Assembly (NCBI RefSeq): GCF_035285525.1
Contig: NZ_JAYKGW010000191.1
Span: 1-5,412 of the forward strand
Direction: 5' to 3'
Source of the DNA: Okeania sp.
GTDB taxonomy: Bacteria > Cyanobacteriota > Cyanobacteriia > Cyanobacteriales > Microcoleaceae
Length of the DNA stretch: 5,412 nt
The position numbers and the translations under genes are program-made. The first letter of the stretch is position 1, and each line of letters starts with the position of its first letter. Shown one piece after another: positions 1-5,412 of this stretch. Under the pieces are notes generated by a model that had not been told where the DNA came from, ran no database searches, and saw only the letters and a list, made by a program, of their open reading frames with translations.

Positions 1-35
1 CAGGATTTATTTTAAAGATGAGTAAAATTTGGTAA
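1..35 (+). CDS. 3' end (10 codons plus TAA) of an upstream Uma2-family (DUF820) putative endonuclease gene, cut by the window edge
   Basis: Codons from nt 3 read GFILKMSKIW* (TAA 33-35). nt 1-38 match nt 559-596 with 3 mismatches by eye; that segment is the 3' end of the Uma2-like copy downstream (PGLVLNMSKIW*). The following spacer also matches (ttttaccaatg before each ATG). Confidence 0.45.
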   Translation, partial: GFILKMSKIW

Positions 36-76
36 ATAGGAGACAAAATATACTGGAAGAAACAATAATTTTACCA

Positions 77-593
77 ATGTCTCTAAGCTTAAAAATGACA
101 GAGGAACAATTTTTTAAATTCTGTCAAGTTAATCAAGATTTATGGATAGAAACTAATAAATTTGGAGAATTATTAATTATGTCTCCTGCTAGTTCCTAAA
201 TAGGAAATAGAGATGGCAGGAGTTTAGCTTTTAGTTCGAGTACAGAATTTACTCTTTCTACAGGAGCGAAAAAATCTCCCGATGCGCCTTAGATAAAATT
301 AGAAAGATGGAATAGTTTATCTCAAGAAGAAAAGGAAAAGTTTGCTCCAATTTGCCCAGATTTTGTAGTAGAATTAATGTCACCTTCTGATAGTCTAAAA
401 ACCTTACAGGAAAAAATGGAAGAATATATGGCAAAATCGGAAGTAAAATTAGGGAATGTTAATTGATATAAAGGAAAGAAAAGTTTATATTTATCGCCCT
501 GGAATGCCGAATGAATGTTTAGAAAATCCAGAGACTGTGAGTGGGGAAAAAGTATTGCCAGGACTTGTTTTAAATATGAGTAAAATTTGGTAA
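77..593 (+). pseudogene. Uma2-family (DUF820, PD-(D/E)xK-like putative restriction endonuclease) pseudogene
   Basis: From ATG 77 the translation is MSLSLKMTEEQFFKFCQVNQDLWIETNKFGELLIMSPASS*IGNRDGRSLAFSSSTEFTLSTGAKKSPDAP*IKLERWNSLSQEEKEKFAPICPDFVVELMSPSDSLKTLQEKMEEYMAKSEVKLG. A frame change near 452-460 leads into LIDIKERKVYIYRPGMPNECLENPETVSGEKVLPGLVLNMSKIW*. The motifs MSP..(G)NR, SPDA(S)WI and PDFVVE(L)SPS are typical of cyanobacterial Uma2 proteins. Lesions are an in-frame TAA at 197-199, an in-frame TAG at 290-292 (where family members have TGG/Trp), and a +1 frameshift near 455-459. It also looks about 15 codons short after GNR. Confidence 0.8.
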
Positions 594-644
594 ATAAGGA
601 GGAAAAATATAAATATGCTGGAATAAATAATAATAATTTTACCA

Positions 645-692
645 ATGCTTTCCAGCTTAAAGAGGAACAATTTCATAAATTTTATTGTATGA
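645..692 (+). pseudogene. 5' stub of a third Uma2-like copy
   Basis: nt 594-690 parallel nt 36-130: same spacer motif (aataattttaccaATG), then ATGctttccAGCTTAAAgAGGAACAATTTcatAAATT against ATGtctctaAGCTTAAAaatgacagAGGAACAATTTtttAAATT. A ~7-nt deletion shifts the frame and a TGA follows at 690-692. No recognisable Uma2 coding sequence follows. Confidence 0.45.
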
Positions 693-716
693 AAATTCAA
701 GGAAAATTAGTAGAAG

Positions 717-722
717 AAGGAG
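717..722 (+). promoter_or_regulatory. Shine-Dalgarno-like AAGGAG upstream of the TTG start of the DUF262 gene
   Basis: AAGGAG at 717-722 lies 10 nt before TTG 733. TAA at 730-732 closes the frame immediately upstream. There is no in-frame ATG, GTG or other TTG between 733 and the first conserved DUF262 motif, so TTG 733 is the only canonical start available. Confidence 0.45.
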
Positions 723-732
723 ATTTTTTTAA

Positions 733-2241
733 TTGAGTAATTTATTTTTACAAGCGGAATATTTTGAACGTATATTCAAAGAAAATCTAAAAATAGAGAC
801 TTATTCACAATCAATAGAAAGTCTATTTAGCGATCGCTTTTTAAGGCGTATTGATTATAAACCTTACTATCAAAGGAATTATGTTTGGGATGATGATAAA
901 GCTTCATATTTTATTGAAAGTATACTTCTAGGAACAGAAATACCTCCTTTAATATTCTTCAAGAATGGAGAACGAACAGAAGTTATTGATGGCAGGCAAA
1001 GATTTGAAACAATAGAAAGATTTAAGAATAGTAAATTTCAATTAACTAAAAAAGGTTTATTTGCTTTAAAACAACTCTCCAAAAATACATACAAAACCAT
1101 TTTTGATAATAAAGAAACTACTAGCATAATAGATTTGTTTTTAGAGGCAAAAATCAGAATAGTTGAATTTGCAATTGTTAATGAAACAAGGTTAAACTCT
1201 GTATTAGAAGATAAAATAAAAAAAGAAATATTTGCTAGATATAATTCTGGTATAACGCCTTTAAAGGCACCAGAAATTGACAATGCTGTTTATGATACCG
1301 ATCCAATTTATCAGTATTTTAAAAATCGTCTGAGGCAAGACCCAGATTTTGAACAATTAATGTATGATTTGTTCTTTAAGCCAAATAAGAATAGCACTAA
1401 AGAGAAAGATAGAGGAAAAATTTTACAATTTATTAGAAAAAATTTAGTCTTGAAAATGTTTCCGATTAAGTACTATTCTCGGAGTAATAATAGGACAGAA
1501 ACTTTAGGAAAATTATTTGAACATTTATCAGATAAAATTTCTGAACTAGAGGTAGAGCGACTATGTGAATCATTTATTGATAAAGTTAAAATTGTAGAAT
1601 CATTCAGGCAAATCTTTATAAGACTAAACTTAAAGCACAATAGGTTAATTTTTGAATGTTTATTATGGAGCCTACTAATCTTAGAAAATGAAAATGTGAA
1701 TTTATTGAAACTAAAACACAAGAGTTTACTAGATAAAATCAGTAAAAAAATATCAAATAACTTCCAAGAATATTTTGAAGAACAGACGATATTTTATAAG
1801 GCAATACAGGAGAGATATACTTTTACAGCGAAGTTATTTGAAGAAGAGTTTAAAATTAATTTAGAAGTCTATTATGCAGGAAGTGATGAAAAAAGAAAAG
1901 AACTGAGTAAACTACGACAAACAGATGATGAAGATACTATTACTAAACTTAACGAGCTTAAAGATTTAAGAGTAACTAAGCCAGAACCATCGCGAAATTC
2001 AATAGATGATATAACACGATTGATGGAACGTAAGAAATTTTTAGTTAGACCTTCTTATCAGAGATCGGAAGTAACTAATTTGTCTAAGGCATCCGCTATT
2101 ATAGAAAGTATTTTATTAGGTATTAATTTACCACCTATTTTTATCTTTAAACGTTCAGATGGAATTTCTGAAGTTATTGATGGTCAGCAAAGACTTTTAA
2201 CAATATTAGGATACCTGGGGAAAGAATATGTTGATGAATAA
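733..2241 (+). CDS. DUF262 (GmrS/ParB-like) domain protein: one complete DUF262 module, a helical region, and the N-terminal half of a second DUF262 module; ends at a premature-looking TAA
   Basis: Module A has YKPYYQRNYVW (approx nt 856-888), IESILLGTEIPPLIFF, VIDGRQR (DGRQR at 988-1002) and FARYNSGITPLKAPEIDNA (from nt 1231). Module B starts with VRPSYQRSEV, IESILLGINLPPIFIF and VIDGQQR (DGQQR at 2179-2193), 15 codons before the TAA at 2239-2241. These are the hallmark DUF262 motifs of GmrSD, BrxU and SspE-type proteins. Confidence 0.85.
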   Translation: MSNLFLQAEYFERIFKENLKIETYSQSIESLFSDRFLRRIDYKPYYQRNYVWDDDKASYFIESILLGTEIPPLIFFKNGERTEVIDGRQRFETIERFKNSKFQLTKKGLFALKQLSKNTYKTIFDNKETTSIIDLFLEAKIRIVEFAIVNETRLNSVLEDKIKKEIFARYNSGITPLKAPEIDNAVYDTDPIYQYFKNRLRQDPDFEQLMYDLFFKPNKNSTKEKDRGKILQFIRKNLVLKMFPIKYYSRSNNRTETLGKLFEHLSDKISELEVERLCESFIDKVKIVESFRQIFIRLNLKHNRLIFECLLWSLLILENENVNLLKLKHKSLLDKISKKISNNFQEYFEEQTIFYKAIQERYTFTAKLFEEEFKINLEVYYAGSDEKRKELSKLRQTDDEDTITKLNELKDLRVTKPEPSRNSIDDITRLMERKKFLVRPSYQRSEVTNLSKASAIIESILLGINLPPIFIFKRSDGISEVIDGQQRLLTILGYLGKEYVDE

Positions 2242-2475
2242 AATAAGAAATGTAGCACAAAAAAATCAAATTTTGCCCTGAAAAATTTACGGATTCTTAA
2301 GGAATTAAAAAATAAAAAATTCCAGGATTTAGAAGTTGCATTACAAGACAAAATATTAGATTTTCAATTATTTGTTGTTGAGATAGAAGAAAGTCTAAAT
2401 CTAGAATTTAATCCAGTAGACTTATTTGTTAGATTAAATAATAAGCCTTATCCTATTAAAGAAAATTCTTTTGAA

Positions 2476-3339
2476 ATGTGGAACTCTTGGGCTGAACGGG
2501 AAGTAATTACAAAAATTAAAGACAATGTTAATGAATATCGAGAATGGTTTCATCTAAAATTAGCCAAAGACCTTGACCGGATGGAAAATGAGGAATTATA
2601 TACATCTTTAGTATATTTTGAGTTTAAACAGCTTCAAGAACAAAACATAGAAAAAATTGTCAAAATATATAAACAAAATAATAGGATTAATGCCAGATTA
2701 GCGCCAATAAAAGGGGATATTAGTTCGGTATTGACAAAAGTTTCTGAACGTCAGGAAGATAAGGAACTATTTATGAATAGTATTATAAAGGTGGAAAAAT
2801 TTATCTCAAAAGTAAAATGTGTGTTGCTTGATGAAGATAAAGATAAAAATCACCTAGATATATATTTAAAAAATGAATTAGATTCTATCTATAAAGCTCG
2901 CAAGGAAAATCGTTATTTTAGAAGAACTAAACAAGATTTTTATATACTCTGGTATATACTAAATCCTCTGAATGATGAAATGCTAAGATATCATAGAAAA
3001 ACAATTAAAAAGGAACTAAAAAATTTATTCTATAAAATGAAAAATAGTGAAAATAGTAACTATGATGAACATAAATTTAAAAAAGAAATAGAAAAATTTC
3101 AAAATAAGTATAAGCAAGATAAAAGAAAGATAAAATTATCTGATTCAGAGAAGGAAATGTTAATCAAAAAACAAGGAAATAGATGCCCTATATCTGGAGA
3201 CCCTCTGTTTATGGGAGATGAAATAGAAGTAGATCATAAAAAACCATTAGCTATAGGAGGCTTAGATTCTATTGATAATTTACAAATTACTCATAAAAAC
3301 GCAAATAGGAGAAAAGGTACAAAATATAATAATTCTTAA
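2476..3339 (+). CDS. HNH endonuclease-domain protein as drawn from the first ATG; more likely the C-terminal part of the interrupted 733-3339 gene, with coding sense already present from 2242
   Basis: The C-terminus reads RCPISGDPLFMGDEIEVDHKKPLAIGGLDSIDNLQITHKNANRRKG (nt 3184-3318), an HNH/HNN His-Me finger (DH at 3232-3237, then N, then N). It is in the same frame as 733-2241. nt 2242-2475 are stop-free in that frame and encode the missing half of DUF262 module B (FALKNLRILKEL...DLFVRLNNKPYPIKENSFEMWNS). That stretch has no in-frame ATG, GTG or TTG. Confidence 0.8.
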   Translation: MWNSWAEREVITKIKDNVNEYREWFHLKLAKDLDRMENEELYTSLVYFEFKQLQEQNIEKIVKIYKQNNRINARLAPIKGDISSVLTKVSERQEDKELFMNSIIKVEKFISKVKCVLLDEDKDKNHLDIYLKNELDSIYKARKENRYFRRTKQDFYILWYILNPLNDEMLRYHRKTIKKELKNLFYKMKNSENSNYDEHKFKKEIEKFQNKYKQDKRKIKLSDSEKEMLIKKQGNRCPISGDPLFMGDEIEVDHKKPLAIGGLDSIDNLQITHKNANRRKGTKYNNS

Positions 3340-3372: not shown

Positions 3373-3700
3373 AAATGTTAAAGCAGTTAAAAGACTTGAA
3401 ATTGCTATCCTGACGGAATGCTGCGCAAACCTTCCACTCCGTTACACTCGCTGCGGACGTACTTGTAAATTTTTTTACCTATTGCCTCTCTCCACTAGGA
3501 AATTAATTCTGCATAACTACTTAGGGCTTGCTGATTAAAGATAAAAGCCTTTACAGATAAATCTTTTAGCGTTTTTAAGTAGGTCAAAAGTACCAGCTTT
3601 TAAGTCTTTAAAGCTAAAAAATCTAGGATATTCAGCTAATTATGGGAGAAAATCCAGGGATAATTCTTTGGACTACCTCTTCTGTAATTCTTATTCCTCC

Positions 3701-3723
3701 TGGATTCTGGATTCTGGATTCTG
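3701..3723. repeat. Heptanucleotide tandem repeat (TGGATTC)x3 plus a partial unit
   Basis: The direct reading is tggattc tggattc tggattc tg at 3701-3723. It is flanked by tcctcc on both sides (approx 3695-3700 and 3726-3731). Confidence 0.85.
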
Positions 3724-3772
3724 ACTCCTCCATCTACCATTCATACTTTTTCAGCAAACCCTACTTATAGTT

Positions 3773-3823: not shown

Positions 3824-5167
3824 ATGGCATACGATTATGATTTATTTGTTATAGGTGCAGGTTCAGGAGGGTTAGCATCTTCAAAAAGAGCAGCATCTTA
3901 TGGAGCAAAAGTAGCGATCGCTGAAAATGATTTAGTTGGAGGAACCTGCGTCATTAGAGGATGTGTGCCTAAAAAATTGATGGTTTATGGTTCTAGATTT
4001 TCTCACTTTTATAAAGATGCGGTAGGTTATGGTTGGAGTGAAGTAGAACCAAGTTTTGATTTTCATAAATTATTAGATGCTGTCAATACAGAAGTTTTGC
4101 GGTTGAGTAAGCTACATATTAGTTTTCTAGAAAAAGCAGGGGTAGAATTAATAGAGGGATATGCTAAATTTATTGACAACCATACTGTAGAAGTAGGCGA
4201 TCGCCAAATTACAGCAGATAAAATTTTAATTGCTGTTGGTGGTAAACCAGAGAAAATAAATATTCCGGGAATTGAACATACTATTACTTCCCGTGAAATG
4301 TTCCACCTCAAGGAGCATCCCAAAAGAATGGCAGTTTGGGGAGGCGGTTATATCGGTGTCGAATTTGCTGGAATAATGAACGGACTTGGTACCGAAGTTA
4401 CTCAAATTATTCGCCGAGATTCAATTTTGCGGGGTTTTGATGCAGATATTTGTAGCAATATTCAGGAAGGAATGGTAAAACATGGCATTAATTTCCGCAC
4501 CAGAACTAATGTAGAAAAAATTGAGAAAGTACCAGAAGGATTAAAAGTTCACCTGAGTGGAGAAAACGCTGAACCTTTAATTGTCGATACATTCCTTTGT
4601 GCAACTGGTCGTAAACCAAACTTAGCAGGTTTAAATCTAGAAAATGCTGGTGTCGAAACAATCAATGGTGCAGTTGCCGTGAGTAATAACTGTCGCACAA
4701 CTCAACCAAATATTTATGCTGTCGGAGACTGTATAGATAAAGCAAATTTGACTCCAGTTGCTATTGCTCAAGGTCGCGCTTTTGCTGATACAGAATTTGG
4801 TAATATTCCTAGAGCTATTTCTCTAGAAAATATTCCAACTGCTATTTTCTCCAACCCAGAAGGAGGAACGGTAGGTTTGTCAGAAGCAGAAGCACGAGAA
4901 AAATTTGGTGACTCTGTTAAATGTTACCATGCCAAGTTTCGCCCCATGTACCACACCTTCACAGGTGCGGAAGAGAAAGTCATGGTGAAATTAGTGGTTG
5001 AAACTAATACTGACAAAGTTTTAGGAGTACATATAGTTGGTAAAGATGCTGGTGAGATTATTCAAGGAATGGCGATCGCTGTAAATATGGGAGCAACCAA
5101 AGCAGAGTTTGACCGAACCGTTGGTATTCATCCTTCTACTGCAGAAGAGTTTGTGACTTTACGTTAA
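3824..5167 (+). CDS. gor: Glutathione-disulfide reductase (FAD/NAD(P)H pyridine-nucleotide disulfide oxidoreductase, class I)
   Basis: 447 aa. The N-terminal FAD fold is YDYDLFVIGAGSGG. The redox-active disulfide is GGTCVIRGCVPKK (Cys codons at 3947 and 3962). The NADPH fold is VWGGGYIGVEFAG followed by RRDSILRGFD. The second FAD motif is IYAVGDC. The C-terminal His-Glu motif GIHPSTAEEFVTLR is diagnostic of glutathione reductases. Three HIP1 sites lie inside the gene. Confidence 0.93.
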   Translation: MAYDYDLFVIGAGSGGLASSKRAASYGAKVAIAENDLVGGTCVIRGCVPKKLMVYGSRFSHFYKDAVGYGWSEVEPSFDFHKLLDAVNTEVLRLSKLHISFLEKAGVELIEGYAKFIDNHTVEVGDRQITADKILIAVGGKPEKINIPGIEHTITSREMFHLKEHPKRMAVWGGGYIGVEFAGIMNGLGTEVTQIIRRDSILRGFDADICSNIQEGMVKHGINFRTRTNVEKIEKVPEGLKVHLSGENAEPLIVDTFLCATGRKPNLAGLNLENAGVETINGAVAVSNNCRTTQPNIYAVGDCIDKANLTPVAIAQGRAFADTEFGNIPRAISLENIPTAIFSNPEGGTVGLSEAEAREKFGDSVKCYHAKFRPMYHTFTGAEEKVMVKLVVETNTDKVLGVHIVGKDAGEIIQGMAIAVNMGATKAEFDRTVGIHPSTAEEFVTLR

Positions 5168-5173
5168 CTTAAG

Positions 5174-5218
5174 AAACCCGCCCCTACTGTTGATAAAAAA
5201 TGCTGTAGGGGCGGGTTT
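5174..5218 (+). terminator. Perfect 14-bp stem-loop 7 nt after the gor stop; likely terminator or mRNA-stabilising REP-like hairpin
   Basis: AAACCCGCCCCTAC (5174-5187) pairs with GTAGGGGCGGGTTT (5205-5218) around a 17-nt loop. The only U residues are the three closing the stem, so it is not a textbook intrinsic terminator. Confidence 0.55.
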
Positions 5219-5295
5219 GAACAGAGATTTATCTGCTGACTCTCAGATTTATGTAAACCCGCCATCATAGAAGGTGTTAGCTGTGTCTGTTTAAT

Positions 5296-5330
5296 GGTTT
5301 ATATCATATCATTGGGGGCGGGTTTATCTA
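5296..5330 (+). repeat. 35-nt direct repeat, copy 1 (ggtttatatcatatcattgggggcgggtttatcta)
   Basis: Identical by eye to 5378-5412, giving an 82-nt period. Confidence 0.85.
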
Positions 5331-5377
5331 AAAATTAGATGAGTTGTTAATTTAACTGAGAAACCCGCCCCTACTTA

Positions 5378-5412
5378 GGTTTATATCATATCATTGGGGG
5401 CGGGTTTATCTA
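5378..5412 (+). repeat. 35-nt direct repeat, copy 2; ends exactly at the window edge
   Basis: Identical to 5296-5330. The array may continue beyond the window. Confidence 0.85.

Follow-up and report, generated by a model that had tools for sequence, protein, structure and literature searches.

Positions 733 to 3339 of the window (the whole stretch of 5412 nt that was analysed) very probably hold a real null allele, that is, a pseudogene, of a single-chain defence-type nuclease, an allele that would have arisen once and been spread by recombination. The window is an entire contig (C191) of a 6.5-Mb draft genome in 260 contigs, estimated to be 97% complete. Its features, all on the + strand, are as follows.

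1..692, +, head-to-tail copies of a Uma2 gene (PF05685; E 6.4e-27)
733..3339, +, the whole interrupted nuclease gene, a probable pseudogene allele (translation, Pfam, colinear homologue alignment)
733..2241, +, N-terminal ORF, 502 codons plus TAA (ORF list; PADLOC NsnA match)
817..1287, +, first DUF262/GmrSD_N domain, residues 29-185 (PF03235, profile positions 2-196 of 199)
2026..2445, +, second DUF262/GmrSD_N domain, residues ~432-571, with the stop inside it (PF03235, E 4.7e-12)
2239..2241, +, nonsense codon TAA, codon 503 (GAA in G004, G007, G008 and L018)
2242..2475, +, 78 open codons, second half of the second DUF262 domain (F.RLN....P motif)
2476..3339, +, C-terminal ORF, 287 aa, starting at Met582; helical region and HNH domain
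3190..3324, +, HNH domain, residues 820-864 (Pfam HNH PF01844, 24.6 bits; HNH_4 PF13395, 24 bits)
3824..5167, +, gor, intact glutathione-disulfide reductase gene (TIGR01424, 639 bits, above cut-off)

A nuclease frame with one internal stop

Translation of positions 733-3339 gives 868 sense codons and a single internal stop, the TAA at 2239-2241, while the two other frames of the gene contain 86 and 139 stops. The ORFs at 733-2241 and 2476-3339 share a reading frame (both starts are 1 mod 3), and the 78 codons between the stop and position 2476, where the next listed ORF begins, read exactly as the earlier note had written them, with neither a stop nor an ATG, GTG or TTG start codon. Given the base composition of the gene (A 0.43, T 0.30, G 0.16, C 0.11), the probability that a random codon is a stop is 0.097; the chance of finding 78 open codons is then 3.6e-4, and that of finding all 365 downstream codons open is 8e-17. 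The first start codon available after the TAA is that of Met582, a residue that is invariant across the nuclease family.

The read-through product has 868 residues, and the family consists of single chains of about 865 residues. Its architecture comprises two modules, each made of a ParB-like DUF262 domain and a helical region, followed by a C-terminal HNH domain; the DUF262 and HNH domains are matched by Pfam. The DGRQR and DGQQR motifs are present in the DUF262 domains. The first of these domains scores 74-93 bits against PF03235 (cut-off 33.2). The second scores 46.9 bits over profile positions 6-184 of 199 when the read-through segment is used, whereas the part preceding the stop matches positions 5-76 only. 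Since the match runs across the stop and the part before it is partial, the stop splits the second DUF262 domain, the missing half of which is encoded in the 78 open codons, as the earlier note had proposed. The N-terminal ORF encodes the complete NsnA-like first module and, of the second DUF262 domain, the first half, through the DGQQR motif.

More than 1500 homologues of the read-through product were found. Among the best 120, which come from phyla that include Cyanobacteria and Bacteroidota, nearly every one is a single chain of 860-890 aa, colinear over 98-100%. With more than 100 such chains the read-through product is colinear over 99-100%, which bears out the view that the two ORFs belong to a single interrupted gene. 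The nearest relatives are from Dapis sp. BLCC M229 (85%), Okeania sp. SIO1I7 (84%) and Okeania sp. SIO2F4 (89%, partial). At columns conserved in at least 95% of the family, the window sequence deviates at 3 of 216 positions, the stop aside, and its intact kin at 2 of 216. An AlphaFold model of the Dapis orthologue, built from an alignment of 75 sequences (pLDDT 82), shows the domain order ParB-like, helical, ParB-like, helical, HNH. Its best fold matches in the PDB are BrxU (7P9K, the top match; probability 0.96, E 5.7e-3), ParB CTPase domains and HNH domains, all of them globally weak because the protein is many-domained. A sequence search of the PDB with the family profile returned only a Cas9 HNH match, and no solved structure of the GmrSD family was matched.

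Around the lesion, the window reads GAT GAA TAA AAT, the orthologues GAT GAA GAA AAT and the G008 orthologue GAT GAG GAA AAT, with GAA at codon 503 in three syntenic congeners. Because the orthologues at the gor locus have GAA, the lesion is a G>T transversion and no indel is involved, in agreement with the substitution that had been deduced from the unchanged frame. In the model, the equivalent of codon 503 falls within the second ParB-like domain, in a loop that follows the DGQQR helix, and the corresponding alignment column is variable across the family (N/K/S/E/D/R). The G>T change would thus have replaced Glu503 (GAA) by TAA at a variable loop position directly behind that helix. Translation would end after 502 residues, and the product would be devoid of half of the second sensor domain and of the whole nuclease; the 365 codons downstream, with Met582 as their first start, give no sign of separate expression.

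The nuclease gene is AT-rich, with an overall G+C content of 27% (range 25-30% over 733-3339), as compared to 38% for gor (range 35-41% over 3824-5167). The Uma2 copies upstream recur every 558 nt or so. The one in the middle is disrupted by a TAA (197-199), by a TAG where a Trp is conserved (290-292) and by a frameshift near 455, and is therefore a second, older pseudogene adjoining the nuclease gene; the third copy ends abruptly at the start of the nuclease gene. The spacer before gor contains short tandem GGATTCT units at positions 3700-3725 (ggattctggattctggattctga). Downstream of gor, which itself ends in a TAA stop codon, positions 5172-5412 contain clustered AAACCCGCCCC(TAC) units of alternating orientation, and the 35 nt at 5296-5330 recur without mismatch, as a direct repeat, at 5378-5412, up to the contig end. 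This cluster is probably a dispersed hairpin repeat at which the assembly broke. A scan of the window against Rfam at E<=0.1 gave no match.

Alleles of the nuclease gene across Okeania and relatives

The nuclease gene is present in 4 of the 12 genus genomes searched (G000 included), in each case beside gor, and was not found in the other 8. gor is thus a conserved neighbour that marks the orthologous locus across relatives, and the Uma2 and gor neighbours are also seen at orthologous loci. The alleles sampled are the following.

Window allele: TAA503
L017 (metagenome contig JAAUYJ010150541.1): TAA503; upstream part outside the contig
L020 (JGI 3300019849): TAA503 and further lesions
G004 (Okeania SIO2F4): 5′ frameshifts; GAA503
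L018 (ENA ERZ23496902): 129-nt insertion; GAA503
G007 (Dapis M229, = P0002): intact; GAA503
G008 (= P0004): intact; GAA503
Okeania SIO1I7 (P0003): intact; known from the protein record only

Five of the eight alleles are broken, by at least four independent types of lesion. Since most alleles are broken in this way and 8 of 12 genomes searched yielded no copy of the gene, the nuclease gene is dispensable or costly in the Okeania group.

TAA at codon 503 is thus carried, besides the window, by L017 and L020, two independent assemblies from other projects. L017 was found by a DNA pattern scan and L020 via a search with the C-terminal ORF; no other 502-aa N-terminal ORF was found in exact-protein look-ups or in the first homologue search. 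The L017 contig sets in at window position 2218. It matches the window without a difference over 2221-2276 and is mosaic beyond that; past about position 2385 it resembles G008 (97-98%), its identity to the window being only 88%, and all its 365 codons downstream of the TAA are open. L020 is 87.6% identical to the window, and gor adjoins it. The gor genes of L017 and L020 are 88.4% and 88.8% identical to that of the window and 93.8% identical to each other, and the window gor is 87-89% identical to all other gor genes sampled. With the gor genes of the TAA lineages differing by 6-12%, the TAA carriers are different lineages.

The other lesions are of several kinds. G004 has two +1 insertions within its first 40 codons. 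L020 has, in addition to the TAA, a +1 insertion near codon 26, TTA>TGA at codon 258, and the changes DGQQR>DSQQR, R444K and E618K; the insertion near codon 26 is common to L020 and G004. L018 is the allele closest to the window (96.3% identical) and is instead broken at window position 2131/2132, where 129 nt are inserted. This insertion (L018:1924-2053) ends in ATTCATT heptamer repeats, and its heptamer part gives 231 short BLAST matches in the window's genome, one of them of 69 nt at 85%. The insertion may therefore be a small mobile or repeat element, judging by its sequence.

The 5′ region of the gene has a repeat history of its own. A 313-nt tandem array is found at L020:1419-2667 (4.0 copies, 90% matches), corresponding to window positions 690-865, and also in L015/L004 and L005; in these relatives, the array takes in both the promoter-proximal region and the start of the nuclease gene, over 130-175 nt. 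G004 has three extra array copies and G007 two, and in the window and L018 this stretch occurs just once, at the gene itself. The 5′ frameshift common to G004 and L020 could have come from gene conversion with decayed upstream copies as donors. A paralogue elsewhere in the window's genome was also considered as a donor for gene conversion and was rejected, the nuclease gene being single-copy there.

Selection, translation and probable spread of the interrupted allele

With four sequences only, the terminal-branch omega of the window allele was 0.31, as though the branch were under constraint. When L018 was added, the changes private to the window were 21 nonsynonymous to 6 synonymous, giving an omega of about 0.83 that is compatible with neutrality (p 0.63, 27 changes), as compared to 0.23-0.33 for the other alleles. 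The ratio of nonsynonymous to synonymous changes was higher than in the intact G007 and G008 alleles taken together (Fisher p 0.006), and 21 or more nonsynonymous changes out of 27 would arise under an omega of 0.25 with p 0.0045. The ratio was 13:4 upstream of the stop and 8:2 downstream. Being alike on both sides, these values indicate that neither half looks protected. Apart from the TAA, the 2.6 kb of the window allele contain no frame-breaking lesion. About 1.7 further stops, plus some indels, would be expected from 27 neutral changes, and the probability of seeing none is about 0.18, so the lack of a second lesion is unsurprising. Taken together, the data are suggestive of relaxed selection on the window allele, a signal that appears only with L018 and amounts to 27 changes. 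The occurrence of the TAA in three lineages shows that the nonsense change is not private to the strain, and the ratio among the window's private changes is already near neutral. The broader proposal of the earlier note, an inactivated defence gene or a strain polymorphism, belongs to the right family of explanations.

It is very unlikely, if somewhat less so than the alternatives taken up below, that the stop is tolerated, either because low-level readthrough of the TAA yields a dosed full-length nuclease or because two polypeptides are made, residues 1-502 and residues 582-868 from the ATG at 2476. Such tolerance would fit with the presence of the TAA in three lineages in which the window allele and the downstream part of L017 are otherwise open, with the variability of the loop position at codon 503, where any inserted residue would fit, and with the occurrence in other bacteria of 5′-truncated copies beginning near Met582. 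TAA, however, is the least leaky of the stop codons, and none of the 35 tRNAs predicted by ARAGORN in the 97%-complete genome has an anticodon to a stop codon (UUA, CUA or UCA). As for separate translation, 78 codons without a start separate the TAA from Met582, and a product initiated there would miss half a domain. The 16 promoter-like sites found are no more than chance would give (18.6 expected from shuffling), a single one of them lying ahead of the ATG at 2476 (2378-2407). Moreover, the private changes of the window are close to neutral before the stop as well as after it, and decay continued after the TAA in L020. The gain by L020 of further stops, a frameshift and DGQQR>DSQQR, together with the lack of a suppressor tRNA, argues against the dosed readthrough that the earlier note had entertained.

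A conserved split into two genes with their own starts was also sought in other taxa. The C-terminal 'proteins' of about 290 aa recorded there proved, once their contigs were read, to be contig-edge pieces, 5′-truncated remnants (L021, L023 and L024) or frameshift products (L019 and L022), and the remnants and frameshift products keep DUF262 sequence upstream of their Met. A natural two-gene form, which the earlier note had named as grounds for refuting its reading, was thus rejected. The L019 case (L019:2245-4873) comes from a complete 8.7-Mb genome (ENA ERZ21819995) and is a distant family member with 67% DNA identity, split into ORFs of 594 aa and 290 aa by a frameshift directly after an MWNSW motif; it adjoins a BrnT toxin gene and lies near a Uma2 gene.

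The distribution of neighbouring variants bears on how the three lineages came to carry the same stop. All three TAA alleles have AAG at codon 505 (A2245, 6 nt downstream), a codon otherwise found only in L018; the backgrounds surrounding the TAA alleles have CAG or AAT at this position. The TAA alleles agree fully with one another over short tracts only (38-56 nt). The nuclease gene is strongly mosaic in its segment-wise identities, a sign that recombination is at work. About 497 single-base changes could make a stop in the ORF. Considering this number and the linked AAG, a single origin followed by short-patch recombination is the economical explanation. The mutation would have arisen once, on a haplotype of the window/L018 type (AAT AAG), and short-patch homologous recombination would then have carried TAA503 to other lineages of Okeania, giving L017 and L020. 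This scenario is deduced from linkage in the sequences, over shared tracts that are short. In the comparison of the window with L018, the nuclease gene is 96% identical and gor only 87%, so the nuclease gene moves between lineages faster than gor.

The same G>T change could instead have occurred independently two or three times, at a mutational hotspot or under selection for the stop. We consider this slightly less probable still than a tolerated stop. The shortness of the identical tracts and the many nearby sites at which L020 differs from the window are in its favour, and G>T is a common change caused by oxidative damage. On the other hand, the stop would have been hit repeatedly among some 497 possible ones, and the other broken alleles use different lesions. 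Recurrence would also have to account for AAG accompanying the TAA in all three alleles, against backgrounds of CAG or AAT, in a gene whose visible mosaicism shows recombination acting. Finally, a sequencing or assembly error that masks a true GAA codon in an intact gene, as allowed for in the earlier note and as might be imagined from a 260-contig draft in which the rest of the gene is intact, is excluded for practical purposes, since two independent and divergent assemblies (L017 and L020), differing by about 12% elsewhere from the window, carry the same TAA with its neighbouring variants; the same substitution error at one site in three assemblies is not credible, and the private changes of the window are near neutral. 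For the window's own assembly, this backs the called base indirectly.

Relation to known defence systems and significance of the locus

The nuclease family shares several features with the type IV restriction nucleases GmrSD, BrxU and SspE, namely the DUF262/GmrSD_N domain with DGxQR and QR motifs (PF03235), a helical domain after DUF262, a C-terminal His-Me finger nuclease, and the organization as a single chain encoded by a stand-alone gene. By analogy with these systems, the intact protein probably senses foreign (e.g. modified) DNA via its DUF262 domains and cuts it via HNH. It differs from them in having two tandem modules of DUF262 and helical domain where they have one, and in that the nuclease is a classical HNH (PF01844/PF13395) and not DUF1524. 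No DUF1524 domain was reported by Pfam at the C-terminus, so the protein, GmrSD-like in design, is no member of GmrSD.

A second likeness is to the Menshen system, in which NsnA is the sensor, composed of ParB-DUF262 and ParBDB (Li et al. 2025, PMC12065111). Over residues 16-371, the protein matches PADLOC's model of NsnA, PDLC03877, end to end (3e-56, profile positions 41-381 of 385). Unlike in Menshen, the NsnA-like module is here fused to a second module and to a nuclease of its own, and neither NsnB (ABC ATPase) nor NsnC (effector) was found beside the nuclease gene, which is flanked by the Uma2 copies and gor. The locus was therefore rejected as a Menshen system.

As to the lesion itself, the window allele resembles the unitary nonsense pseudogenes of accessory and defence genes in genomes of the Okeania/Trichodesmium type in having one in-frame ochre codon, an otherwise open frame and orthologues with a sense codon, and in being an AT-rich accessory gene with a neighbouring pseudogene. 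It departs from them in that the null allele is common to three divergent lineages, and in that the locus is strongly recombining and repeatedly inactivated. The decay of the nuclease gene is ordinary defence-gene decay with a modest population-genetic twist. What is new here is the null allele common to divergent lineages; taken alone, the window allele would be one more nonsense pseudogene among genomes whose genes are known to decay.

There is a small chance, though one larger than that of either a tolerated stop or recurrent mutation, that TAA503 and intact alleles are kept together across Okeania lineages by balancing selection. If so, protection from phages would be traded off against the nuclease's cost or autoimmunity, short-patch recombination would flip lineages 'off' and 'on', and the polymorphism would outlive species splits.

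For annotation, both ORFs should be joined as one pseudogene of an uncharacterised GmrSD-like family with two DUF262 modules and HNH. With a single origin of TAA503, the locus would amount to a small natural experiment, in which one null mutation is placed in three divergent backgrounds and the same chromosomal site also holds intact alleles and alleles killed in other ways. It would show how alleles of defence genes, even dead ones, are exchanged by recombination among related marine cyanobacteria.
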